The notes beneath the pieces were generated by a model. It had not been told where the DNA came from. It was given only the letters and a program-made list of their open reading frames with translations, and did not search any database. 64,000 nt of DNA from contig OX597814.1 of NCBI GenBank assembly GCA_951406725.2, positions 11,408,001 to 11,472,000 of the forward strand, read 5' to 3'. Shown here piece after piece: positions 3,760 through 62,400 of this stretch. The stretch's first letter is position 1, and each line of letters begins with the position of its first letter. The translations under genes were made by a program, and so were the position numbers. The stretch comes from Octopus vulgaris (lineage: Eukaryota).

Positions 3760-3880
3760 TTGAGCGACACTATGAAATAAAACGTATAGTTTTACGTGAT
3801 CGCGGGTTATCTCGCTTCAGCCCGTCCCTTGGTACTAATCGCAGACTACGAGAATGGTACTCCTGATGTACAAGCATTTA

Positions 3881-4296
3881 CCTATTTCTTTACTACCCAC
3901 AAGGGGCTAAACACAGAGAGGACAAACAAGGACAGACAAACGGATTAAGTCGATTAGATCGACCCCAGTGTGTAACTGGTACTTATTTAATCGACCCCGT
4001 AAGGATGAAAGGCAAAGTCGACGTCGGCGGAATTTGAACTCAGAACGTGGCGACAGACGAAATACCTATTTCTTTACTACCCACAAGAGGCTAAACACAG
4101 AGAGGACAAACAAGGACAGACAAATGGATTAAATCGATTATATTGACCCTAGTGCGTAACTGGTACTTATTCAATCGACCCCGAAAGGATGAAAGGCAAA
4201 GTTGACCTCGGCGGAATTTGAACTCAGAACGTAGCGGCAGACGAAATACCGCTAAGCATTTCGCCCTGCGTGCTAACGATTCTGCCAGCTCGCCCC
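3881..4296 (-). mobile_element. tRNA-headed SINE array (two units) with Tx1-like 3' tail
   Basis: A-box-like TGGCAGAATCG and B-box-like GAGTTCAAATT on the minus strand; ~180-bp unit repeated; same family at 17985, 20386 and 62010. Confidence 0.8.
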
Positions 4297-8674: not shown

Positions 8675-10185
8675 TAAACGTTAAAAAAAACACAACCTGG
8701 GACAAGAACGTGAAACATTTTGAAGACGGCAAAAAAACACACAGACGGGACTTTCGAAGCTCTCAGTCATCAGTCAAGAACCAGATCATCTTCGCAATTT
8801 CGGCTGATTAATCTTGAGATTGCTCCAATCTGGGCAGCCAACCAAGGGAAATCTAAGCCAATCGCATTAGATTCCTTGGAAGAAAACCTCGAAAGTATAC
8901 AACACGGTGACGGAAAAACGGACGATGTTACACGAAAAAAAAAAAAATTCAAAAATACGTAAAAACAATAAAGAAAGCACGGATAAAAATACAAGATAGC
9001 GTAAAAACAATCATAACAAAACCAGGACGTCTCTCCTACTTTTCTCTGCCTTCACCCTTTTCACTCCCCTTGTTCTGTCTCTTTCCCTCTTTTTCTTCTC
9101 CTCCCTTGTTCCCCTTCTTTCTTTCTCTCTTCCTCCGTCCCTCCTCTCCCACATTTCTCTGCCTCTCAGACCTTATACCCCACTTGACCTGTCCCTTTCC
9201 CTCTCCTGCTTCTCTCTTCATCTGTCCCTTCCTCCTTTTTGTGCTCACGTGACCAGCTAGCTACTACTGCCTTTCGCATCAAGTAGTTGGCTTGACCACA
9301 CGTATGTGTTTGTGCTCCGTTTGCCTTCAGGCATTTTTACCACAGCCAGCCCTATACTCAACTCGTCCTGTCGAAAGACGCTTGTCCTGACGTCCTGGTT
9401 TTGTTATGATTGTTTTTACGCTATCTTGTATTTTTATCCGTGCTTTCTTTATTGTTTTTACGTATTTTTGAATTTTTTTTTTTTTCGTGTAACATCGTCC
9501 GTTTTTCCGTCACCGTGTTGTATACTTTCGAGGTTTTCTTCAAGGAATCTAATGCGATTGGCTTAGATTTCCCTTGGTTGGCTGCCCAGATTGGAGCAAT
9601 CTCAAGATTAATCAGCCGAAATTGCGAAGATGATCTGGTTCTTGACTGATGACTGAGAGCTTCTGTGTGTTTTTTTGCCGTCTTCAAAATGTTTCACGTT
9701 CTTGTCCCAGTTTGTGTTTTTTTTAACGTTTACCTATATACATGGCGGCTACGTACCCTACCCTTTAACCCTATACTGTAAGTATATTACTCTCTAACAT
9801 TGGTACGACTCTACTACTCTGTCTCTTTTTCCCCTCTCTCCTACTTTTCTCTGCCTTCACCCTTTTCACTCCCCTTGTTCTGTCTCTTTCCCTCTTTTTC
9901 TTCTCCTCCCTTGTTCCCCTTCTTTCTTTCTCTCTTCCTCCGTCCCTCCTCTCCCACATTTCTCTGCCTCTCAGACCTTATACCCCACTTGACCTGTCCC
10001 TTTCCCTCTCCTGCTTCTCTCTTTATCTGTCCCTTCCTCCTTTTTGTGCTCACGTGACCAGCTAGCTACTACTGCCTTTCGCATCAAGTAGTTGGCTTGA
10101 CCACACGTATGTGTTTGTGCTCCGTTTGCCTTCAGGCATTTTTACCACAGCCAGCCCTATACTCAACTCGTCCTGTCGAAAGACG

Positions 10186-11851: not shown

Positions 11852-12121
11852 CACATATATACAGACATATATACGCATTCCTATTATTCTCACCCATTTA
11901 ACCATCATCCATTCGCCCACACACAACAGCCAGCTTTCTCATCTATGTATATTCAAAAAAAGACTTTAATTTTTATTTCATCTCATTTTATTTTTATTTT
12001 TGTCTTATTTTACTTTTAATGTTATCTAAAACTCTTTGCCCTCACTCACTTTCACTCTTATTTGCTCTTTTCAAACTAAACCAAACATCCACTGACTCTT
12101 TCTATCTATCTATCTGTCTCC

Positions 12122-12185
<64 letters not shown>

Positions 12186-12190
12186 GTCTG

Positions 12191-12255
<65 letters not shown>

Positions 12256-12290
12256 TTATCTATGTCTGTCTATCTATCTATCTATGTCTG

Positions 12291-12339
<49 letters not shown>

Positions 12340-12392
12340 TTATCTATGTCTGTCTGTCTATCTATCTATCTATCTATCTATCCATCTATCTA
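11558..12392. repeat. Mixed microsatellites (GATA)n, (TA)n, (TATC)n
   Basis: Directly visible tandem repeats; no LINE insertion in these arrays. Confidence 0.95.
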
Positions 12393-14208: not shown

Positions 14209-14420
<212 letters not shown>

Positions 14421-14489
14421 TGTTTCTTTATTAGCCACACAGGGCTGCACACAGATAGAACAAATTACAAGGTAGAGCTTTTCTTTTGG

Positions 14490-14522
<33 letters not shown>

Positions 14523-15445
14523 AAGGGGGAGTTTCGATCAAAAGGGATCGTAAAAGGAGAGAAAGAGGACAAAAAAAAAGGGGGTTAAAAAAAAGGGGGA
14601 GAGGAAAAAAAAATTGATCAATAGGGATCGTTATCACAGAAATGTCAATATGAAGTGTAAAGGGGAGGACAGGTGAGGTTTACCCGTGGAAAGAAAAGCC
14701 TACGGAAAAGACCACGGTAACCTCGGTCAATGAAGTCACATTTTATATTTCTTTTTTTTTTTTTTTTTTTTTTTGCAAGTAAGCAACTCTCTGTTTTCGA
14801 TTTCTGGGTTCATAGGACTATGCTCAAGGTGGCTTCGTCATTCATACGTGCCATTCTTGCTACATTCACCCATCTTTTTTTAAAACATTCGCTAGACAAA
14901 ACTTGCCTCTCTACTCTCACTTTCCTTTTCAAGTGGTACTTGAAGAAGTTGATGAGAGATTGACCAGAGAGGAAAGTGTTTGTCTCCAATCCTTTCAGAC
15001 GCGTCCACCAGATACATTCTTTCGCCATAGCCACAAGGATGATGAAAATAGCTCTTCCTTCCCGTTTGAAGGAAGGAGGCGTGACAATATTGACGATAGA
15101 CTCAGCTGATAAACCGACTCGTCCCACACGTGACAGCAGTTGTTCGACATAAGCCCACAGGTCGGAAATTGTTGGACACTGAACGAGTGCGTGCAGAACG
15201 GTTTCGTCGCTCTGACCGCATCTCGGGCAGGTCGGCCCCGTGTTTCTCGAGCCGTGTCTGTAGAGCTTATCCCGAACGGGTAGCGCTTCTCGGTAGCACT
15301 GCCAGGCCAGGGATCTCTGGAAGTTGTCCATGGGCCCTGGCCCGAAAGTCGTCCTGAACAGGCGGGTCAGGTACTCCTCGTCGACGTCCAGGTTCGCCCC
15401 GAGCTCGTCGTCGTACCTCCCCTCCACTAAACCCCTATAGAATGC
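14421..15445 (-). mobile_element. 5'-truncated Tx1-like LINE copy A
   Basis: Encodes ORF2 C-terminus (AFYRGLVEG...CPRCGQSDETVLHALVQC...) highly similar to 32631-33270; 3' UTR ending AATAAAGAAAC; (GATA)n on both sides. Confidence 0.95.
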
Positions 15446-15482
<37 letters not shown>

Positions 15483-15483
15483 T

Positions 15484-15518
<35 letters not shown>

Positions 15519-15519
15519 T

Positions 15520-15554
<35 letters not shown>

Positions 15555-15555
15555 T

Positions 15556-15642
<87 letters not shown>

Positions 15643-15643
15643 T

Positions 15644-15739
<96 letters not shown>

Positions 15740-15740
<1 letters not shown>

Positions 15741-16800
15741 GTTTCTTTATTGGCCACACAGGGCTGCACACAGATGGGACAAGTTACAAGGTAGAGCTTT
15801 TCTTTGGGGGACGAAAAAAAACAAAAAACAAAAGACAAAAGAAACAAAAAAAAGGTGGCGTAGGTTTTCGATCAAAAGGGATCGTAAAAGGGAAAAAAAG
15901 AACAAAGAATAACAAAAAAAAAATAAATAAAAAAAATAAAAAACGAAAAGGAACAAAAGAAAAGAGAAATGAAAAAAAGAAGAAAAAAGGGGAAAAAAAC
16001 GATCAATAGGGATCATGTATCACAGTGTAATGATGTATGGTGTAAAGGGGAAAGCAAGTAAGGTTTATCCGTGGGAAGAAAAGCCTACGAAAAAGACCAC
16101 CGTAACCTTGGTCAATATTGTTATATGTTACCACATTTGTTTGCAAGTGGGTAACCCTCTGTTTTCAATTTCTGGGTTCATAGGATTATGCTCAAGGTGG
16201 CTTCGTCATTCATACGTGCCATCCTTGCTACATTCACCCATCTTTTAAAACATTCGCTAGACAAAACTTGCCTCTCTACTCTCACTTTCCTTTTCAAGTG
16301 GTACTTGAAGAAGTTGATGAGAGATTGACCAGAGAGGAAAGTGTTTGTCTCCAATCCTTTCAGACGCGTCCACCAGATACATTCTTTCGCCATAGCCACA
16401 AGGATGATGAAAATAACTCTTCCTTCCCGTTTGAAGGAAGGAGGCGTGACAATATTGACGATAGACTCAGCTGATAAACCGACTCGTCCCACACGTGACA
16501 GCAGTCGTTCGACATAAGCCCATAGGTCGGAAATTGTTGGACACTGCACGAGTGCGTGCAGAACGGTTTCGTCGCTCTGCCCGCATCTCGGGCAGGTCGG
16601 CCCCGTGTTTCTCGAGCCGTGTCTGTAGAGCTTATCCCGAACGGGTAGCGCTTCTCGGTAGCACTGCCAGGCCAGGGATCTCTGGAAGTTGTCCATGGGC
16701 CCTGGCCCGAAAGTCGTCCCGAACAGGCGGGTCAAGTACTCCTCGTCGACCTCCAGGTTCGCCCCGAGCTCGTTGTCGTACCTCCCCTCCACTAATCCCC
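15740..16800 (-). mobile_element. 5'-truncated Tx1-like LINE copy B
   Basis: Same ORF2 C-terminus as copy A with a different 3' UTR; separated from copy A only by (GATA)n 15446-15739. Confidence 0.95.
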
Positions 16801-17984: not shown

Positions 17985-18580
17985 TGAGCTGGCAGAATCG
18001 TTAAACACGCAGGGTGAAATGCTTAGCGGTATTTCGTCTGCCGCTACGTTCCGAGTTCAAATTCCGCCGAGGTCGACTTTGCCTTTCATCATTTCGGGGT
18101 CGATTAAATAAGTACCAGTTACGCGCTGGGGTCGATATAATCGACTTAATCCGTTGGTCTGTCCTTGTTTGTCCTCTCTGTGTTTAGCCCCTTGTGGGTA
18201 GTAAAGAAATAGGTATTACGTTCCGAGTTCAAATTCTGCCGAGGTCGACTTTGCCTTTTATCATTTCGGGGTCGATTAAACAAGTACCAGTTACGCACTG
18301 GGGTCGGTATAACCGACTTAATCCGTTTGTTTGTCCTTGTTTGTCCCCTCTGTGTGTAGCCCCTTTTGGGCAATAAAGAAATAAGAATCGTTAACACACA
18401 GGGTGAACTGCTTAGAAGTATTTCGTCTGCCGCTACGTTCCGAGTTCAAATTCCGCCGTGGCCGAATTTGCCTTTCATTCTTTCGGGGTCGATAAATTAA
18501 GTACCAGTGAAACATTGAGGTCGATGTAATCGACTCGTCTCTACCCCCAAAATGGCTGCCCTTGTGGCAAAATTTGAAAC

Positions 18581-20385: not shown

Positions 20386-20805
20386 AGGCGGCGAGCTGGC
20401 AGAGTCATTAGCACGCCGGGCGAAATGTTTAGCGGTATTTCGTCTGCCCGTTACGTTCTAAGTTCAAATTCCGCCGAGGTCGACTTTGCCTTTCATCCTT
20501 TCGGGGTCGATTAAATAAGTACCAGTTACGCACTGGGATCGATATAATCGACATAATCCGTTTGTCTGTCCTTGTTTGTCCCCTCTGTGTTTAGCCCCTT
20601 GTGGGTAGTAAAGAAATAGGTATTTTGTCTGCCGCTACGTTCTGAGTTCAAATTCCGCCGAGGTCAACTTTGCCTTTCATCCTTTCGGCGTCGATTAAAT
20701 AAGTACCAGTTACGCACTGGGGTCGATATAATCGACTTAATCCGTTTGTCTGTCTTTGTTTGTCCTCTCTGTGTTTAGCCCCTTGTGGGTAGTAAAGAAA
20801 TAGGT
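20386..20805 (+). mobile_element. SINE array (head plus two units) with Tx1-like tail
   Basis: AGGCGGCGAGCTGGCAGAGTC head; two units each ending GTAAAGAAATAGGT. Confidence 0.82.
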
Positions 20806-21639
20806 ATCATGTGTTTTGTCGTGATCAGCCTTGATTAACAAAGTTTATGAAAAGCATTCCAGCCGTGACGTTCTGATTTACCTTTAAAACAATTTCAATC
20901 TGTATACCTATCGTTACTCAATGCAATATGTCCCACCCGTTATTTAAGAAACTAAAGTGTGAATTATTGGAGAAGTTACTGCTATTTCTAGCATATCTTT
21001 TATACGGGTAGGGAATTCCTTTGTTTTGTCTTGTGTATAGGTGAATCGTCTCGACAAGCAACAGTGACTGGAATCAACGGTTCATCTTCTGTCACTGGAG
21101 CCCAATACACTTATGAGTGTATCTCAGTGACGTATTCCATTGTCTGATTGGTAATGGTGACGACGACGACGATGACGACGATGACGATGATGATGGTGAT
21201 GATGATGATGATTACAATAGTGGCGGTGGTGTTGGTGGAGGTGGTGGTAGTGGTGGTGGTGGTGGTGAAAAGGATGATGGTGGTGATGCTGATAGTGGTA
21301 ACAGTGACGAGGAGGAGGAGGAAGAGGAGGAGGAGGGGAAGGGATAGCAGGATTTTGTAGTAGTGCATTATGTTGATTGAGGTACGACTGTCTACTTAAC
21401 TTCGCATGCAAAGTCAAGATGAGATGCAATACTGTGATGGAGGTTTCACGTTTTACTTCTTCCAGCTCCTCAGAAAACACAAACGGCCAAGTTGTATCCC
21501 CATTACATTGTAAGTGTAAGTTTCAGTGAATCTTAAATCTATGGAACCAATCATTGCTAGCCATAAATGTTTCTTCACCAACACTCCTTGTTTCATATTT
21601 AAGTGTCCAAAAACATTTAAAACTTTTCGCTTGGGCATA

Positions 21640-31379: not shown

Positions 31380-31730
31380 TCTATTTCGTTTTTGGATTTG
31401 GTTTGCAAGATTCTTTATATGAGTTCGTGTGTTGAAGCATATTCTGTTGTCTTTGGAGAGAATCATTCTCTTTTACTGCCTTATTATTTAACACACTCAC
31501 CGGTAAAATTTACACTTATTTCTTATTTTTATTTTCCTAAAATTTTCGTTGTGTCTTGCAACCTTTTCAAGAGTCTTGCAACCTTTTCAAGAGTCAAGAC
31601 TGTTGAAAATGTTGCAAGACGCAACGAAAATTTTAGAAAATAAAAATAAGAAATAAGTGGAAATTTTACCGGTTAGTGTGTTAAATAATAAGGCAGTAAA
31701 AGAGAATGACTCTCCCCAGACACAACAGCA
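31380..31730. mobile_element. Palindromic MITE-like element
   Basis: Arms ~31443-31570 and ~31600-31730 are inverted; an internally deleted copy lies at 42510-42736 in opposite orientation. Confidence 0.75.
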
Positions 31731-32037: not shown

Positions 32038-32240
32038 TGTACATATATCCTTAAATCCTTAAAAATGTTTTAGCCCGAATGCCACGGCCATGCTGGGGCA
32101 CCACAAACACACATATATTATCTATGTACGTATGTGTGAATGTATGTGTGCATGCACGCGTTCGTGTGTGTGTGTGTGTGCAATAGCTAGCTAGCTAGCT
32201 AGATAGGTAGATGGACAGACAGACAGACAGACAGACAGAC

Positions 32241-32307
<67 letters not shown>

Positions 32308-32630
32308 CAGATAGATAGATAGATAGCTAGATAGATAACTTTTTATTGTAGCCACACAGGGCTAAACACAGAATAAAAATGGACGAAATACAATGTAGAA
32401 TTTTTCTTTTCGAGGTGGGATGGGTGGGGCAAGAAAAAAAAAAAAAAAAAAGTTTGATCAATAGGGATCTGTGGGTTGTGTGGTGTATAAAAAAGGAATA
32501 TATATATATAAGGTTCACAGTTTAGGTGTAGTCTTGGAAAGAAAAACCTACAAAAAAGACCAAGGTCACCTCAGGCAATTCGAAAAAGAACACATGAGTA
32601 AGTCGCCTTACTTCTCGTTGTCTCTTTTGG

Positions 32631-35600
32631 TTACAGATTTATGCTTAAAATAGTGTCGTCTTTCATACTGACCATTTTTGCCACTTTTACCCACTTTTTA
32701 TTAAAACATTCGTTCGACAAAGCCTTCCTCTCTATTCTCATCCTCCTTTTCAAGTGGTACTTGAAAAAGTTGACGAGAGACTGACCAGAGAGGAAGGTGT
32801 TTGTTTGCAGTCCTTTCAAACGCGTCCACCACACACATTCTTTCGCCATAGCCATCAGCGTAACGAAAACCGTTTTCCCTTCCCGTTTAAAGGAAGGTGG
32901 TGGAACAATATTCACAATAGACTCGGCCGATAGGCGAGCCTGACCTACACGTGACAACAGCTGTTCGACGAAGGACCACAGCTCTGAAATATCTGGACAC
33001 TGCACGAGTGCGTGCAGAACGGTTTCGTCGCTCTGACCGCATCTCGGGCAGGTCGGTCCGGTGATGGTTTTCGAACCGTGTCTGTAGCTCTTCTCTCGAA
33101 CAGGTAGTGCGTCTCGATAGCACTGCCAAGCCAGGGATTTCTGGAAGTTATCCATAGGCCCCGGCCCGAACGTCGTCCTGAACAGGCGGGTTAGGAATTC
33201 CTCGTCGACGCCCAGGTTTGCCCCGAGTGTGTCGTCGGACCTCCCCTCCACTAGTCCTCTATAGAACGCTTTAGTCGTTTGGAAATTGCACAAGTTTGAC
33301 CCCGGTCGGCAGAGCTGCTGTAGAGCTTGGCGACACTCTCGGTGCCAATCGCCCAGTTTCGGTCTCTTTTTGATCCACGTTTGCAGTTCGGTCAGTGAGA
33401 CGAGCTGCGGGAAGTCGCGCCTCACAAACGGCGCCCACACCTGTTCACCGTCGTCGATGAATTTCCAGAGATGTCGCAGTCTCAGCGCATGCCTGCGCAT
33501 CATCAACCACGGCATGCCCAGTCCTCCATTCAACGGATGTTGACAGCAAATGGACTTCCTCACCATCGGAACGCCACCTTTCCACAGGAAGCGGAAGAGT
33601 ATGCGTTCCAGTTTGGTGATGGTGGCGTCGGGACAAGGTACGACGGTCAGGCGGTAATCGATGACGGATGCGATGTACGCGTTCGCCACCTCCGCCCGGC
33701 CTTTTAGAGACAGCTTTCTCTCGGCCCATGTTTGGCTGAGAGCGACCACTCTACTCGTGATCTCGTCCCAGTTCTTATCCATTTGGAGGTCCGGACTGAA
33801 CCAGACCCCGAGCAATTTAACCGGTCCGTCCGTCCAGCGTCCCACTACTGAGCCGCAGTCGGACGGCATGGGCTTGCTTCTCCAGGTGTCGAGTAGCAAA
33901 CCCACTGACTTTTCCGGGTTAATCTTTGCTCCCGTCACCGTTTCATATTTTCTTAGTGTCTCGCCGACCAGCTCGATGTGCTGGTAGCTCGACACTATGA
34001 CGGTGACATCGTCCGCATATGCCGACACGCTCGTCCCGCAACCCAGTTCCCGTGGGATGCCCCTCAGTGTCGCCAACTTCCGCAGTAGCGGCTCGAGAGT
34101 CAATACATACAGAAGCGCCGACAGGGGACACCCCTGACGGACCGAACGCGTGATGTCAAACGGTTTAGACAGGTGACCGTTCACCCGAATCACCGATCGG
34201 ATGCCGCTATACAAGGCAGCGATCCAACCGCGGAAGACGGGACCGAAGCCAGCCGCCCTGAGGACGGCCGCCAAGTACCGATGGTCGACCCTATCGAAGG
34301 CTTTAGACTGATCCAAATTTATCAGCGCCCCACCCATGCCAGGATCCTTAACTACCCTGTCCACAATGTAGCGCATCAGATGGAGGTTGTCATGTATGGT
34401 TCTGCCCGGCACGGCGCATGTTTGCGCCCTGTCGACCAGTTTACCAATGACAAGCGCCAACCTCTCGGCTATTACTTTGGCCAAAATTTTCAAATCTGCG
34501 TTGAGCAGAGTGATGGGCCTGAAATTATCTATAAAATTCCCCTTGTTTGAGTCTTTCTTCAGCAACGTCACTGCACCTCGGCTCACGAAACCGGGGATTC
34601 TCCCGTTTTGTTGCCAGTTGCAGTAGACTGATGCCAAGAGGTCGCCAAACAAGTCTGGCATTCGACAATACAGCTCGTAGGGTAAACCATCCAATCCAGG
34701 CGACTTATCCCTCGCGCAGCCCGCCATCGCATCCCACACGTCAGCGGCTGTGATGGGACTTTCACAACACTCCGCTTCTCTTGCCGAGAGCCGCGGCAGG
34801 TCGGTCAGGTAGGCACTGAAATCCATCCCTCGTTCCGACCCACCACTCGCACCAAACAGTCGAGCAAAGTGCTGTTGAAAGGCCTCACACATCCTTTCGG
34901 GTTCGAGTAAACTGCATCCCTGTTGATCTATTAGAGACCGAATGGTTGATCTGTTGCCACGCTGCGCCTCCGCTACCCGGGCCTCTCGCGCAGCTTCAAT
35001 CCCTTCGTTCCTTAAGGCACGCATTTTAGCTCTGACGACGCAACCTTCGTGCTTGGCGTTGAGGTGTTGGTCGAGGGCCATCCTCGCAGCCAGCACGTTG
35101 GTTGCGCTGCCAGTGGTAAGTGCCTCTTCTAGTTTCTTAACTAAGTCTCCCTCTACTCTATTTCGTTCTATCGCTAATTCCTTGCTAAACCTAATTGATT
35201 CCGATTTTATTGCCATTTTCAGGGCGTACCACCAGCGGTTGTTAACGACCGCTCCTGTCAGCGCCCTCTTAATTAACTCGCTAATCCGGTTCCTGTAAAC
35301 CTGTCGCACTAACAGCGACGTGTTCAGTTTCCAGTAACCGGGACCCTGCCTATGTGTTTTATCTAAGTCGAGCGTACACGTAACAAATTTGTGATCTGTG
35401 TAGCTGACTATTTTAAATTGTGGACATCCTACACTATCCCTATCCGCTGTCCTGCATAGAATTCTATCTAGATAAGATCTCGACGATCCGACGCGGTTTG
35501 TCCAAGTCCACGTTGGCACGTTCGGATGGTCGAGTCGGAACCTGTCAGACAAATGGAAACGTCTGAGCAGGTCTTTGAGGCTCTTACACCCCCTTCTATT

Positions 35601-36080
35601 CCTATCCCTTCCCACATAATCTAGATGCGTGTCCAAGGTAGCGTTCCAATCCCCTACTAACAGTAAAGGTCTAGACGTACCCAGGAAAACCTCTAGACGT
35701 CTGAAGAAATCCGCCCGACCCGTTAAGGACGGTGCATAAACTGCCATCAGACGGAATGCACACCCATTTCTGCCATCCACGTCCAAGACAACCAGCCTAC
35801 CCTCCGGGTCTAGGAATATTGCTCTTACTTTTACTTTTAGACTCTTTCGAAAAAGCACTGCAGTACCTCCACCACCCATGTTCGGCAGACAGGGAGAAAA
35901 ATAAATGTCAAATTGATTGCCAAACATGGACTCGAGGGCCCGCGGCTTACTGAGTCTGGTTTCGCTGATAGCTACTATATCCACGTCTAGTGACTTGATG
36001 TCGTTTAGAAGGTAACCTTGCTTCCAAGCCGACGCCAAGCCACGCGCATTCACACAACCTAATTTAAGCATACTTGACAT
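32631..36080 (-). CDS. Tx1-like ORF2: APE endonuclease - reverse transcriptase - C-terminal zinc finger (1149 aa)
   Basis: APE: NARGL, SETR, VYAP, GDWN, SYLDR, TDH; PGYWKLN; RT: SPGLDG, FRPITLLN, DQSKAFDRV, RQGCPLS, YADD; LSLKGRA; CPRC..ETVLHALVQC. Confidence 0.96.
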   Translation of the reverse strand: MSSMLKLGCVNARGLASAWKQGYLLNDIKSLDVDIVAISETRLSKPRALESMFGNQFDIYFSPCLPNMGGGGTAVLFRKSLKVKVRAIFLDPEGRLVVLDVDGRNGCAFRLMAVYAPSLTGRADFFRRLEVFLGTSRPLLLVGDWNATLDTHLDYVGRDRNRRGCKSLKDLLRRFHLSDRFRLDHPNVPTWTWTNRVGSSRSYLDRILCRTADRDSVGCPQFKIVSYTDHKFVTCTLDLDKTHRQGPGYWKLNTSLLVRQVYRNRISELIKRALTGAVVNNRWWYALKMAIKSESIRFSKELAIERNRVEGDLVKKLEEALTTGSATNVLAARMALDQHLNAKHEGCVVRAKMRALRNEGIEAAREARVAEAQRGNRSTIRSLIDQQGCSLLEPERMCEAFQQHFARLFGASGGSERGMDFSAYLTDLPRLSAREAECCESPITAADVWDAMAGCARDKSPGLDGLPYELYCRMPDLFGDLLASVYCNWQQNGRIPGFVSRGAVTLLKKDSNKGNFIDNFRPITLLNADLKILAKVIAERLALVIGKLVDRAQTCAVPGRTIHDNLHLMRYIVDRVVKDPGMGGALINLDQSKAFDRVDHRYLAAVLRAAGFGPVFRGWIAALYSGIRSVIRVNGHLSKPFDITRSVRQGCPLSALLYVLTLEPLLRKLATLRGIPRELGCGTSVSAYADDVTVIVSSYQHIELVGETLRKYETVTGAKINPEKSVGLLLDTWRSKPMPSDCGSVVGRWTDGPVKLLGVWFSPDLQMDKNWDEITSRVVALSQTWAERKLSLKGRAEVANAYIASVIDYRLTVVPCPDATITKLERILFRFLWKGGVPMVRKSICCQHPLNGGLGMPWLMMRRHALRLRHLWKFIDDGEQVWAPFVRRDFPQLVSLTELQTWIKKRPKLGDWHRECRQALQQLCRPGSNLCNFQTTKAFYRGLVEGRSDDTLGANLGVDEEFLTRLFRTTFGPGPMDNFQKSLAWQCYRDALPVREKSYRHGSKTITGPTCPRCGQSDETVLHALVQCPDISELWSFVEQLLSRVGQARLSAESIVNIVPPPSFKREGKTVFVTLMAMAKECVWWTRLKGLQTNTFLSGQSLVNFFKYHLKRRMRIERKALSNECFNKKWVKVAKMVSMKDDTILSINL

Positions 36081-36145
36081 TTACGAAAATTGTGTTTTAC
36101 ACACTATATTAGAAGAGACAAGAGGCAAGAAGTGAGGTCACTTAC

Positions 36146-38029
36146 TCATTTTAAAAGTTTCATTTTTTCTTCTTCTTCTTTTGTATCGTTTTTGATGAGG
36201 TGTTTGTATAGTTTTTTCGACAGGTATCGTTGATACCCGCCTACCGCATTCGGAAATAATGTTTTCAGTATGTGGTGTTGTGCTTGTGTTATGTGTAAAA
36301 TTCTGATGTGTTTCGGTGGTGTGGTGTGCGGATGATTGTTTGTCTTAAAGTCATCTTCACAGACGACCATGTTAGATTTGATGTAGTCCATTAATTCTTT
36401 ATCGTCTGTGTCTATTGCAGTTAGTTGTGTGTGTGGTTTTACGGGTTCATTACTTTTTTGATTGTCTAGGGGGATGTTGTCCTGAGTTAGATATCTCCCT
36501 GCTTTAATTCCTTGTTTGGTGGATTTTTTGGATCTTTTTCTTTTACCCCCTGTGGCTATTTGCCATTCCGTCGAACTTTCGTCGTCCGACGTATCAGTAT
36601 GGGGTAGAGGCAAAACATTTGCATTACTATGTATGCTTGTATAAATTGTTGATGTTTTGTGCGGTGTTTGTGTTGTTGTGGTGTTAGGGGTAGCATTTGT
36701 CTTCTCGTCAGTGTTTTCTGTCTTTTTAATTGTCGTCCTGGCTGTGGGCGTGGGTCTATTTTTTGTTAATTCAACAGGTTTAATTGGTTGTGAAGTCAAC
36801 GGTGATTGTGTTGGTACTGTTTTTCTTGGTGATGTTGTTGGGGTTTGTTTGCTGGTTTGTTGTTTTTCTTGGCGTTGTTCCATAATTGAGTGTGTTGGTG
36901 TTGGTGTTGGTGTTGGCAACAAAGGGATTTTATTTGTTTTCTGAATTGTTCTTTCTTGTTTTTTCTGTACCAGATCGCACTTGGCAATCAAATGTTCGGG
37001 GCTGCCACATTTGTAGCATCTAGGCTTTTTGCCTTCTGCCATAACATATAGGCATTGCCCATTCTCCAAGTATATCTTGTCGGGTAGGCTCTCGATAGAG
37101 GCCCCCTCAATCTGGATGGTCACTACTACTGTTTTTCCACCCCAATTGTCGTTTAGGTACACGGCTGTTTCTAGAATATTGATCTTTTTCAAGTGGTAAC
37201 AGATTGCCCCTGTTATCCATTTGTTCGGCATATCGGGGGGTACATTTCTGATAGTAATTCTACTCACCCTCTGGTTTTTATAATAAGGGACCATGATGAT
37301 TTCATCATTTCCCAGAGACTCAGTAGAGTGAGCTTTTGCCACTTCCTGGTTAGGGAAGCGGACCACTACTGTGTTAAACTGGGGACCCCAGTTTATATAC
37401 TCTTTTTCTTTCATTATGTTTTTTAAACATTTCTCCACATCAGTTTTTGTAATCTGTTCATTTGGTTTTTTGTTTTTTCTAATAATTTTATATACAATTG
37501 TCTTATTTTCAATTTCTTGTTTTATATGTTGAGGTGTATGCAGGACTAAATCTTGTCCACGGGTTGTAAAGAGAGCTCTTGTTTCTATGAGCTCTTCATT
37601 TGTGAATGTAACAATCTCCTTTTTCTGGCGAAGAATATCTGCGAAATTTACTGTTGTTGACTTTTTTGTATTGGCATCTTCACTATTAGATAGTTCATTT
37701 TTATTGTTGTTCTTGTTGTTGCTGTTGTTTTTGTCAATAGTTTTCGTTTCAGTTTTATTTTTATCATTTATGTTGGTCGTGGTAGTGGTGGTGGTGGTGG
37801 TGGAGGTGGTGGTGGTAGCAGTTGTTGTCTCGTGGTTGCTGTTGTTAGTGGTGGTGGTGGCGGTGGTGACAGGGCTATTAACGCACGTGGTTGCAGCGTT
37901 CCTTTCACCGAATTTCACGTTGGCATTTTCCGTGCGAACGTTCTTTTTTTTCTCTGTCGTTTCCAGACTAGGAAAATGTTGTTCCAAAAAAGAACGCGAC
38001 CAGCGTTCAACAATAAAATTTTTAGACAT
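36146..38029 (-). CDS. Tx1-like ORF1, gag-like nucleic-acid-binding protein (627 aa)
   Basis: CCHC knuckle CYKCGSPEHLIAKC, ITIRNVPP motif, low-complexity T/N-rich tracts, basic GGKRKR; 65 nt upstream of ORF2. Confidence 0.9.
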   Translation of the reverse strand: MSKNFIVERWSRSFLEQHFPSLETTEKKKNVRTENANVKFGERNAATTCVNSPVTTATTTTNNSNHETTTATTTTSTTTTTTTTTNINDKNKTETKTIDKNNSNNKNNNKNELSNSEDANTKKSTTVNFADILRQKKEIVTFTNEELIETRALFTTRGQDLVLHTPQHIKQEIENKTIVYKIIRKNKKPNEQITKTDVEKCLKNIMKEKEYINWGPQFNTVVVRFPNQEVAKAHSTESLGNDEIIMVPYYKNQRVSRITIRNVPPDMPNKWITGAICYHLKKINILETAVYLNDNWGGKTVVVTIQIEGASIESLPDKIYLENGQCLYVMAEGKKPRCYKCGSPEHLIAKCDLVQKKQERTIQKTNKIPLLPTPTPTPTHSIMEQRQEKQQTSKQTPTTSPRKTVPTQSPLTSQPIKPVELTKNRPTPTARTTIKKTENTDEKTNATPNTTTTQTPHKTSTIYTSIHSNANVLPLPHTDTSDDESSTEWQIATGGKRKRSKKSTKQGIKAGRYLTQDNIPLDNQKSNEPVKPHTQLTAIDTDDKELMDYIKSNMVVCEDDFKTNNHPHTTPPKHIRILHITQAQHHILKTLFPNAVGGYQRYLSKKLYKHLIKNDTKEEEEKMKLLK

Positions 38030-38229
38030 TTTCTAATGTCGAGAAGAAAATAACAGAAATGAAATGGGGTCGAAACTGCCCCTAGGGGCGAATTCCTCCC
38101 TTGGAAAAGCACTCAAATGAAAGTTGGTTGCCTTACACACCTTATTTGCAAAAATCTACACAAAAATTGGCCTATAAATAGTCAAAATAAATGATTACCT
38201 TCGGAGCTGAAACGACATCACATCCGTCA

Positions 38230-38270
<41 letters not shown>

Positions 38271-38290
38271 CAGATAGATAGATAGATAGC

Positions 38291-38389
<99 letters not shown>

Positions 38390-39132
38390 TTAAGTTTCTT
38401 TATTGGCCACACAGGGCTGCACACAGATGGGACAAGTTACAAGGTAGAGCTTTTCTTTTGGGGGATGAAAAAACAAAAAACAAAAGAAAAAAAAGGGGGG
38501 ATGGCGTAGGTTTTCGATCAAGAGGGATCGTAAAAGGGAAGAAAAGAACAAAATAAATAAATAAATAAATAAAAAAAAAAATAAAAAATAAAAAGAATAA
38601 AAAAAGAAAAAGAAAAGGAACAAAAGAAAAGAGAAATGAAAAAGAAGAAAAAAGGGGGAAAAAAAGGGGAAGAGGAAAAAAAACGATCAATAGGGATCGT
38701 GTATCACAGTGTTATGATATATGGTGTAAAGGGGAAAGCAAGTAAGGTTTATCCGTGGGAAGAAAAGCCTACGAAAAAGACCACGGTAACCTTGGTCAAT
38801 ATTGTTATATGTTACCACATTTGTTTGCAAGTGGGTAACCCTCTGTTTTCAATTTCTGGGTTCATAGGATTATGCTCAAGGTGGCTTCGTCATTCATACG
38901 TGCCATCCTTGCTACATTCACCCATCTTTTTTTAAAACATTCGCTAGACAAAACTTGCCTCTCTACTCTCACTTTCCTTTTTAAGTGGTACTTGAAGAAG
39001 TTGATGAGAGGTTGACCAGAGAGGAAAGTGTTTGTCTCCAATCCTTTCAGACGCGTTCACCAGATACATTCTTTCGCCATAGCCACAAGGATGATGAAAA
39101 TAGCTCTTCCTTCCCGTTTGAAGGAAGGAGGC
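38390..39132 (-). mobile_element. 5'-truncated Tx1-like LINE copy D
   Basis: 3' UTR nearly identical to copy B; PPSFKREGRAIFIILVAMAKECIW; head-to-tail with the full-length copy across (GATA)n. Confidence 0.95.
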
Positions 39133-51189: not shown

Positions 51190-52893
<1,704 letters not shown>

Positions 52894-53123
52894 ATAAATG
52901 TGGCAACAAGAAGTGAAATTCAATTTTTAAAAACAAAAAGATCAATAAGAGAAAAGAACTTCATGGCGGCTTTGCTATCGGATAAATGGGCAGATTAAAA
53001 GATTATGAGAAATATCGTAATAAATAAGGGTCAGAGGAAAATATAAGGTGTCGATTTAACACCAGGCTGACCCTGATCAAGCCCAACTATGATACAATAT
53101 GTTTTAGCTGCGACCATAAGATA

Positions 53124-56949: not shown

Positions 56950-58733
56950 ATTTGATTTTGATTTTGATTTTTCTAGTTTCAGCTAATGAGCTGTGGCCAT
57001 GCTGGGGCTCCGCCATTTGGTTTGCTACACGATTTTACCTCACGGATGCTTTTTAGCAAACGCCATCTGATGCTTTAGAGAGTTCGATACAGCTGCCCTC
57101 ATCTGCACCTCCTGCCGTGAAGTTGGTTCATCCGGGACACCTGACAGGAAGAGATCCAGTCCTACTTTAAAGACATCCGCATCTACACCATGCAGGTCTT
57201 TCAGGTTCTTCGGGAGGATATTGAAGAGCTGTGGGCCTCTGAAGCCCAGGCTGTCACAGTATCTTGTCCTACATCTTGATGGCAAATTTGGAGTCCTTGG
57301 TACTACGCAGTGGCGTCTGGTTCTGGCATTTGTGTGACTCTCGATGCCAAAGTTTGGGACATGTCCTTCCAGGATCTTCCAGATATATATTATGGCATAT
57401 CTTTCTCGCCTACGCTCCAGGGAATAGAGCTTTAATATCTTGAGTCTTTCCCAGTAGCTCATATGCTGCACAGAGGCTATCTTCTTCGTGTAGCTTCGTT
57501 GGATCGCCTCAAGTTCTGTGATCAACTTGACACTGGATGGTGACCATAGCTGAGAGCAATAGTCAAAGTGGTTTAGGACAAGTGTCTTCCAGAGGACCAT
57601 CATGGTTTCTTGTTCTCTTGTTCTAAAGGTTCTAAGAATCCAGCCAGCCAGCCGTCTACATTTCATTGTCAGTTTAGCAACATGTACATGAAAGGTTGCG
57701 TCATCACTCATGTGAATACCCAGGTCACGCACTGATTGTGCCTCTGGGATTGCAATCCCTCCGGGTCCAGTGTATTCATTGGGTATTGCATTCAGTTTTG
57801 CATGCTGATAGTATAAAGCTTGAAACTTTTCAGCATTGAACTGCATGCTATTCTTTTCAGCCTACTTGTATATTTCGTCCAGCTCACATTGCAGGTGCTT
57901 AGTGTCTTCAGGGTTCTGTATTGCCTGTGAAACTTTTGTATCATCTGCATAACTTGTGATCGTGGTTCTCTGCGTGGCTGAGGGCATGTCTGAGAGGGCC
58001 ATTATGAACAGTAGTGGTCCCAAAACAGTGCCCTGCGGAACACCGCTCACTATTTGCGTGTTAATGGAAGTGGCCCCATTGGCTGCTACCACCTGACTTC
58101 TATTCTTCAGAAAGTCATGAAGCCATTCTCCCAATTTTCCAACTATGCCAAGATCACGCAGTTTGTGACATATCATTCCGTGATCGACTTTATCAAAGGC
58201 CTTTGCAAAGTCGAGATATATGACTTCCACATTTGAGTGGTTGAGCAGTTGTTTCAGCACCCAGTCATAGTGTTGTAGGAGCTGAGTTAAGCAACTTCTT
58301 CCTGGTCGGAAACCATGTTGGGTGTCAGGCAGCAAGTCATTTTCTTCAAGGAAGGTGATTAGTTTCCCTCTGACTATTCGTTCCATGACCTTGCTGATGT
58401 GTGAGGTGAGAGAGATAGGTCTGTAGTTCTTGGCCTCCGCTCTGCTACCTCCTTTATGAATAGGGCATATTTTACCTTCCTTCAGTTTTCTTGGAAGTTT
58501 GCCAGCTGCAAGGAAGCTCTGAAAGAGGAACTGCAGTGGTCTTGCTAGGACTCTCTTACATACTTTTAGGAGGATTGCCGGGAATCCATCGGGGCCAATA
58601 GCTGAGTCTGTTTTCATTTCATCTATAGCCTTTATTGCATCGTCTTCCTTTATATCGATGTAATTTATCGTCGCCGCCTCTGATTTTATATCTGCAGTGG
58701 TAAAGAAGTCAGTTGGATTGGTGATTTGGAAAT
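56950..58733 (-). mobile_element. 5'-truncated CR1/L2-like LINE, RT region with a single in-frame stop
   Basis: GPDG, NYRPISLTS, QHGFRPGRSC, LDFAKAFDKVDH, GVPQGTVLGP, YADD, LYSLERRR; ORFs 57862-58791 and 57040-57846 are in frame across a TAG; (AAAATC)n tail. Confidence 0.93.
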
Positions 58734-59065
58734 GCATATATATACATATATACATGCATATATGTATATATATGAATATGTATATGTACATACATAATTA
58801 TACGCACATACGTACATATATATATGTGCATGTATGCATACATAGACACATACATATATGCACGTATGTACACACACATACATATATATATATGTATGTA
58901 TGTATGTACATATGCATATCCATATATATATATGAAGCCGATTTATTCAGCTAAAACCTTCAAGGCTGTCACCCAGCAGGGTTGCAGTTCAATAAGTGAA
59001 ACAAGCAAAAAGTAAGGCAGACATACATACACACAAGTGTATATATGTGTATGTGTGCATGCATA

Positions 59066-61490: not shown

Positions 61491-62009
61491 TGCATACATG
61501 TATGTACGTTTAATAACGTATCTGTTCACTTTTAACACGTTTCGACAGATGATTCGAACGTGCATATCTGATCGCAATTGTTTTGCATCATCCAGGCTCC
61601 CTTTATCGAATGTGTTATGACCACACATCTTCTAAAGAGAGGGCGATGTTCTCCGATGACGGCAAACAACAGCAATCAGATATTCACGTTCGAGTCTGCC
61701 GGAACGTACTAAAAATTAAAACATACGTATTTTTCACTAGTTTCCTTTAAAGGCAAGATCCTCCAATAAAAGAAAGGAAACGAACATAGTTTTGCTGATA
61801 GTATCGGAGTTAGTTCTCTGCTTCGTTGATTTTTAGATTTTAAACCCCTGTAAAGGATGTTGTTATTCTAATTACAGGTGTAGAAGTATCATTCACAGCT
61901 ATTCAAGTCTTTTGACACCCTGTATCACTGCATGTGTATGTATATGTATTTGTGTATATGCGTCTGTGTATATGCGTATGTGTGTGCGCATGCGTGTGTG
62001 TGTGATGTG

Positions 62010-62400
62010 AACTGGCAGAATCGTTATCACGCTGGGCGAAATGCGTAGCCGTATTTCGTCTGCCGTTACGTTCTGAGTTCAAATTCCGACGAAGTCGACT
62101 TTGCTTGTCATCCTTTCGGGGTCAATAAATTAAGTACCAGTTACACAATGGGGTTGATATAATCGACTTAATCCGTTTGTCTGTCCTTGTTTGTCCTCTC
62201 TGTGTTTAGCCCCTTGTGAGTAGTAAAGAAATAGGTATTTCGTCTGCCGCTACGTTCTGAGTTCAAATTCCGCCGAGGTCGACTTTGCCTTTGATCCTTT
62301 CGGGGTCGATTAAATAAGTACCAGTTACGCACTGGGGTCGATGTAATCGACTAAATCCCTTTGTCTGTCCTTGTTTGTCCCCTGTATGTTTAACCCCCTT
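62010..62400 (+). mobile_element. SINE array with Tx1-like tail
   Basis: Same head, core and tail as 20386-20805. Confidence 0.8.

Follow-up and report, generated by a model that had tools for sequence, protein, structure and literature searches.

A 71-nucleotide direct repeat around an L1/Tx1-type retrotransposon in a GATA microsatellite of Octopus vulgaris: a probable long target-site duplication

Retrotransposons that enter microsatellites leave target-site duplications (TSDs) whose length cannot normally be measured, since plain repeat lies on both sides; variant units remove this obstacle. One such locus lies in a 64,000-nucleotide (nt) window of Octopus vulgaris contig OX597814.1 (positions 11,408,001–11,472,000, forward strand), in whose coordinates all features are given below. 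There an L1/Tx1-type retrotransposon without long terminal repeats (non-LTR), copy C, interrupts a GATA array, and the same 71 nt, two variant units included, adjoin both of its ends. How did this block come to be present twice? The feature is real, and an L1/Tx1-type element specific to microsatellites probably left it as a long TSD, though the case comes from one locus and faces a live rival explanation. The window holds three further copies of the family, A, B and D, all 5′-truncated.

The duplicated block

A sequence-only reading of the window had described 32268–32337 and 38231–38300 as identical, with a variant C at 32308 and 38271 (GACA) and at 32327 and 38290 (GCTA). Re-checking the letters bears out the identity and the variant positions, and the exact match proves to be 1 base longer, 32267–32337 = 38230–38300, 71 nt with both variant units included. 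Each copy of the block reads ATA(GATA)9 GACA (GATA)4 GCTA (GATA)2 on the plus strand; the first (32267–32337) adjoins the 3′ end of the element and the second (38230–38300) its apparent 5′ end. The match is bounded by non-repeat sequence, namely the element 3′ end (32338) and apparent 5′ end (38229), so that a direct repeat adjoins both element ends, as a TSD should. Comparing the end of the left flank with the start of the right flank gives exact overlaps of 1, 3, 7 and 71 nt and of no other length.

The first copy closes the left GATA array (32183–32337, plus strand), which consists of GCTA ×4, mixed units, GACA ×7 and (GATA)16 GACA (GATA)4 GCTA (GATA)2. The second opens the array between copies C and D (38230–38392, plus strand), ATA (GATA)9 GACA (GATA)4 GCTA (GATA)24 GTTA. 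In element orientation the locus is (TATC)24 TAGC (TATC)4 TGTC (TATC)9 TAT, element, (TATC)2 TAGC (TATC)4 TGTC (TATC)16. The rarity of the variants is to be read with the caveat that both recur as runs (GCTA ×4, GACA ×7) farther left in the same left array.

The 24-nt block GACA-(GATA)4-GCTA has only these two occurrences in the window, counting both strands. An unrelated array of 39 units would contain it with a probability of about 5.6e-4, as estimated with pseudocounts from the 246 units that make up the other 11 GATA arrays, and blocks of at least 20 nt with two interruptions are common to only 1 of the 78 pairs among 13 GATA-type arrays, that pair being the flanks of C. Chance co-occurrence of the variants is rejected on these figures, and the two copies of the block therefore share descent. 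Elsewhere in the window GCTA units are confined to the left array of the C locus, which indicates a local origin of the block. A segmental duplication that took in both the array and the 3′ end of the element is also rejected, since the sequences adjoining C and D differ: to the right of the two arrays 34 of 63 positions match without gaps, and the 3′ untranslated regions (UTRs) of C and D are 60% alike.

Origin of the duplication

The 71-nt repeat is best explained as a duplication that the insertion itself produced, and from the sequence we would call this moderately probable. In support of this reading, of the 29 positions that a randomly placed 18-unit TSD could take in the inferred empty array, 13 include both variants. 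Multiplying that fraction (0.45) by a prior of 0.05–0.15, which is a judgement, gives about 0.02–0.07 for the path through a long TSD.

Several points weigh on the other side. The sequence by itself would fit a pre-existing duplication equally, and any spacing of the blocks suits both. Interrupted blocks are duplicated, with no element between the copies, in 2 of 28 interrupted arrays in the window, one of them at exactly 71 nt, and within a single array (beginning at 15446) GATT recurs three times at 36-nt spacing. The upper limits that can be set on TSD length at the sister copies fall short of 70 nt, those copies belonging to a different subfamily (79–82% coding identity). The usual TSDs of APE-type LINEs are 10–20 bp (PMC6895275). 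Finally, the window has a single full-length copy, and the true ends of the element RNA may differ from the ends placed here.

The rival that survives best, to which we give about one part in five of our belief, is that slippage or unequal exchange with a period of about 64–72 nt had already duplicated the block in tandem in the empty array, and that the element landed between the copies. Its TSD would then be short, either 3 or 7 nt exactly, lengths which the exact overlap permits as well, or a pure-repeat length later blurred by slippage. The window offers a close parallel in a GATA-type control array with no element adjoining (12097–12392, minus strand), in which an exact 71-nt interrupted block occurs twice (12169–12239 = 12269–12339) along with the motif GACAGACATA-GATA-AATA, also twice; the internal duplicates counted above and the threefold (GATA)8GATT of the array at 15446 speak for the same process. 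However, prior duplication needs two coincident events, a duplicated block (1 of 13 GATA arrays, 2 of 28 arrays overall; about 0.07) and an insertion between its copies (about 0.2 of the array), for a joint estimate of about 0.015 as against about 0.02–0.07 for the long TSD. Moreover, the interruptions in both control blocks lie close together, in compound fashion, which makes them less like the separated variants at C.

We consider it improbable that an ordinary insertion was followed by an out-of-register crossover or conversion, either between filled and empty alleles or between the flanking arrays 6 kb apart, which copied the block across. The long pure GATA runs on both sides do permit misaligned pairing, and internal rearrangement is visible in other arrays, but the tract would have to end by coincidence no more than 2 units from the element 3′ end, and the flanking non-repeat sequences are not common to both sides.

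Slighter still is the prospect that the blocks were borne by RNA, a read-through transcript with donor flanks having delivered one copy as a 3′ transduction and the 5′ copy through a template jump or read-through from upstream. Tail-less 3′ junctions into the repeat, found in 4 of 4 copies, are what read-through RNA predicts, and a GTTA at the 3′ junction of D lacks a 5′ twin; R1 transcripts include downstream target (PMC2718515), and some 5′ junctions of R1 and R2 hold RNA-borne duplicated target (PMC3774820). Against it, an identical block would be required at both ends, GCTA is native to the left array, and the block adjoins none of the three other copies in the window, though all three are of another subfamily. 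An assembly or polishing artefact, with reads of the empty haplotype aligned out of register on one flank of the filled one, is just as improbable: a young insertion may be heterozygous and polishing errs in repeats, but the window has no N and both open reading frames (ORFs) are unbroken over 5.3 kb, which favours an accurate sequence here.

Length of the duplication

Of the 71 bases, 69 belong to the plain repeat, which leaves the 20 nt spanning the two variant Cs as the informative part. The duplication accordingly has a floor of 20 nt and a ceiling of 71 nt, and would span 61–71 nt if the repeats upstream of copy C derive from the target, barring later slippage. Those repeats probably are target DNA, because truncated copy D, with no 5′ read-through possible and no microhomology, shares the TAT phase of the junction. 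Read-through RNA, as shown for R1 (PMC2718515), may be the source of the two units after the 3′ end of C, and the units upstream could likewise be RNA-borne, as in some R2 insertions (PMC3774820). The earlier figure of a TSD of about 70 bp thus keeps its geometry, with chance excluded and with 61–71 nt several times the usual 5–30 bp, but gives way to these bounds as a length.

Insertion mechanism and age

The locus presents the element, its (TATC)n target, its orientation, fixed tail-less 3′ junctions, intact enzyme motifs and a block adjoining both ends. If the duplication was made at insertion, a young intact L1/Tx1-type element would have entered, by target-primed reverse transcription, a (TATC)n array that carried GACA and GCTA once. 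The endonuclease would have nicked the GATA strand 0–2 units before the GCTA variant, with the primer probably paired to read-through UAUC in the RNA, and the TATC strand would have been opened some 60–70 nt away, 9.75 units past the GACA variant, by a second nick or at a host-made end. This second end need not have been bound to a fixed distance, because every repeat unit is an equally good site. Fill-in would then have duplicated the intervening stretch, adding 15–18 units. To us this looks like a single long case in a family whose TSDs vary in length, rather than a fixed 70-nt signature. A distant nick duplicating about 17 units, as had been proposed, agrees with the TSD geometry at C, but out-of-register annealing or a host-made DNA end would yield an identical product.

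The perfect identity of the blocks had been taken to mean a very recent insertion. We reject it as a clock, since 71 identical nt bound divergence only to <4.1% (95%) and are silent on slippage. The conclusion itself fares better on other grounds: copy C is young because both ORFs are unbroken, and 5334 coding bases without stop or frameshift put substitutions since insertion at <0.5–1.3% per site.

The element

Copy C (32338–38229, minus strand) is a full-length element of 5892 nt that has no poly(A) tail and runs directly into TATC repeats. ORF1 (36146–38029, minus strand) is unbroken over 627 amino acids (aa) and contains a single zinc knuckle of the CCHC type (Pfam zf-CCHC at E 0.002, under the curated cut-off); a search for ORF1 homologues found none among 801 candidates. 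ORF2 (32631–36080, minus strand), likewise unbroken over 1149 aa, encodes an APE endonuclease, a reverse transcriptase (RT) with the motif YADD, and a zf-RVT region, matching Pfam Exo_endo_phos, RVT_1 and zf-RVT, the last just under cut-off. Its residues 7–874 align continuously with residues 10–890 of LINE-1 ORF2p, the best solved relative (E 2.5e-58), the motifs ETR, GDWN, LDRI, TDH and YADD lining up with those of L1, and its match to R2 is far weaker. The L1-group arrangement is thus present in full, with N-terminal APE, RT and C-terminal zinc-binding region in ORF2 and a separate upstream ORF1; the 3′ poly(A) tail of mammalian L1 is found in none of the four family copies.

Of 41 ORF2 matches, the highest-ranking with a name is 'Transposon TX1 uncharacterized 149 kDa protein' (P0015), at 33%. 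A quick tree was built from 39 RT rows (4 of 43 rows, short or unmatched, left out and 1 window RT added; three outgroup labels are guesses from match names), without Kibi, Koshi, Keno or Tx1L references. In it P0001 falls in a group of support 98 with nine unnamed proteins; the tree does not settle how P0001 is related to P0015 and to the plant L1-like rows, nor its placement inside the L1/Tx1 group.

An Rfam scan of the window gave 0 matches, and the RNA folds of the 3′ ends of the four copies were not clearly better than those of shuffled sequences (z −1.37, −0.59, −0.30 and −2.29). All four 3′ UTRs contain a long tract that is U-rich in the RNA sense (32430–32470, 14490–14600, 15810–16000 and 38460–38700). 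They also contain GATC-N6-GATC, a potential small hairpin, once in C and twice in each of A, B and D.

Sister copies and target arrays

Copies A (14421–15445), B (15740–16800, in tandem with A) and D (38393–39132), all on the minus strand, form a sister subfamily whose coding DNA is 98% alike and 79–82% identical to that of C (79% for D). D has one premature stop and is followed by ATA(GATA)11(CATA)12 on the plus strand. The four copies of the family all lie within (TATC)n on the sense strand, in a single orientation, at two sites with two copies per site, although pure GATA runs make up 2.1% of the window; this is microsatellite-specific, fixed-orientation insertion of the Kibi and Koshi type. 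Every 3′ junction passes straight into the repeat without a poly(A) tail, and microhomology at the 5′ junctions of the truncated copies amounts to 2 nt in B, 1 nt in A and 0 nt in D. The lone GTTA at the 3′ junction of D (38389–38392), with no twin on the 5′ side, could be a later mutation, an RT error or an RNA-borne base.

The suggestion that each insertion enlarges its own target finds no backing in the TSD lengths at these sister copies, which are strictly capped at 34 nt (A), 58 nt (B) and 1 nt (D; 47 nt with the terminal GTTA set aside). Neither B nor D offers a variant unit that could serve as a marker. By these caps a family-wide long TSD like that of R9 is not found, with the proviso that slippage could have shifted the caps and that they come from the sister subfamily.

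Around copy A, the only place in the window where GATT is flanked by GATA units, the variant occurs in the arrays on both sides: (GATA)26 GATT (GATA)5 GA (GATA)16 at its 3′ end (14209–14420, plus strand) and TA [(GATA)8 GATT]×3 (GATA)21 GATT (GATA)24 between A and B (15446–15739, plus strand). The flanks of A share a 120-nt match with one 2-nt gap, starting 74 nt from the 5′ junction, which is a hint and no measurement. No clean long TSD was obtained at A; two readings fit, neither of them exactly. One takes a TSD of about 120 nt and adds two 36-nt repeats at the 5′ junction, and the other takes one of 38–70 nt and lets the left run expand afterwards. The threefold (GATA)8 GATT at 15446–15555, at the 5′ junction of A, might reflect repeated priming or later slippage.

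It is tempting to suppose that, given a periodic target, second-strand opening in this (TATC)n-specific family commonly lies tens to >100 bases from the first nick, so that each insertion adds many units to its target and the lengthened arrays draw further insertions. In such a feed-forward loop the retrotransposon would itself build the long GATA microsatellites in which it resides; we think this doubtful. The hints, and they are only hints, are the two copies per occupied site, the GATT on both sides of A, and the unit totals, with 133 and 71 GATA units at the occupied sites as against 6–56 (median 16) in seven element-free arrays. Larger occupied arrays fit growth by insertion and, equally, a preference for long arrays.

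Higher-order repeats inside microsatellites, with interrupted blocks duplicated and no element between them, were seen at 12097–12392 and 51206–52894.

Comparison with known systems

Opening of the second strand is a poorly understood step (PMC6895275, PMC12809410), and the L1 second-strand cut has no strong consensus (PMC12809410). L1 TSDs are usually 5–30 bp, although as many as 10% of events in HeLa cells exceed 100 bp, and lengths of 40, 47 and 54 bp are tabulated for repair-deficient cells; use of a distant nick yields TSDs of tens to thousands of bases, and distant host nicks have been proposed for the large ones (PMC5223499). A TSD of 61–71 nt is therefore unusual yet within the known range.

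For Octopus vulgaris, L1-Tx1 families with recent activity have been reported (PMC13282606). Within the Tx1 clade, Kibi and Koshi occupy TC and TTC microsatellites (PMC4494074) and crocodilian families occupy (TTCC)n/(TTTC)n (PMC4494074, PMC3812793). Copy C resembles them as an APE-type, two-ORF, L1/Tx1-group element that is microsatellite-specific, with tandem copies parted by target, but its target, (TATC)n/(GATA)n, is absent from those given in the consulted passages of these two papers, which contain no TSD lengths for the families. Human L1 elements with large TSDs have identical protein architecture, as in the ORF2p alignment above (E 2.5e-58); unlike C, they end in a poly(A) tail and are only weakly selective of target, and their large TSDs come mostly from cultured repair-deficient cells (PMC5223499). 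C shares with R1 and R2 precise 3′ junctions from read-through target RNA, a variable top-strand cut and microhomology at truncated 5′ ends, but the TSDs of R1 and R2 are 14–17 bp or less (PMC2718515, PMC3774820). No register shift is possible for R1 and R2, because their target is a unique ribosomal DNA (rDNA) sequence. Another comparison is R9, an R2-like element with a restriction-like endonuclease. R9 of Adineta vaga has a 126-bp TSD; as a site-specific non-LTR element whose cuts in the two strands are widely separated, it parallels the reading proposed for C. It is rDNA-specific and its 126 bp are reported as a family trait, whereas C has an APE endonuclease, a microsatellite target and one informative event (PMC6895275).

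At title and abstract level, the literature yielded no GATA/TATC-specific Tx1 family and no TSDs read from variant units; Repbase, Kojima and Fujiwara 2004 and the supplements of PMC4494074 may hold either. The consulted passages of PMC1919474 and PMC1635306 give no TSD length for Tx1 and do not confirm a length of 23 bp for Xenopus Tx1L. Apart from the duplication, C is an ordinary (TATC)n-specific element, possibly one not yet catalogued.

Variant units offer a cheap genome-wide way to map second-strand opening. Should long duplications turn out to be widespread among its members, microsatellites would owe some of their growth to retrotransposition; should C instead represent a lone case from the tail of the length distribution, or an array duplication older than the insertion, the locus is a curiosity.

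Other repeats in the window

The whole-window repeat scan was dominated by microsatellites. A dispersed short repeat family occurs as head-to-tail pairs with a 172–184-nt period at 3879–4291, 18006–18512, 20434–20931 and 62009–62397; it is 90–94% alike between sites, has no Rfam match and is possibly a short interspersed element (SINE). Two similar pyrimidine-rich arrays of 114-nt period (9031–9238 and 9832–10043), about 800 nt apart, suggest a local duplication. By eye, an inverted repeat with arms of >100 nt lies at about 31440–31720 around a 20-nt tandem duplication (31553–31595) and resembles a miniature inverted-repeat transposable element. Fragments of an unrelated non-LTR element occur at 57040–58791 and 1189–1431, both on the minus strand, with an RVT_1 match and P0042 as the nearest tree row, at 34%.

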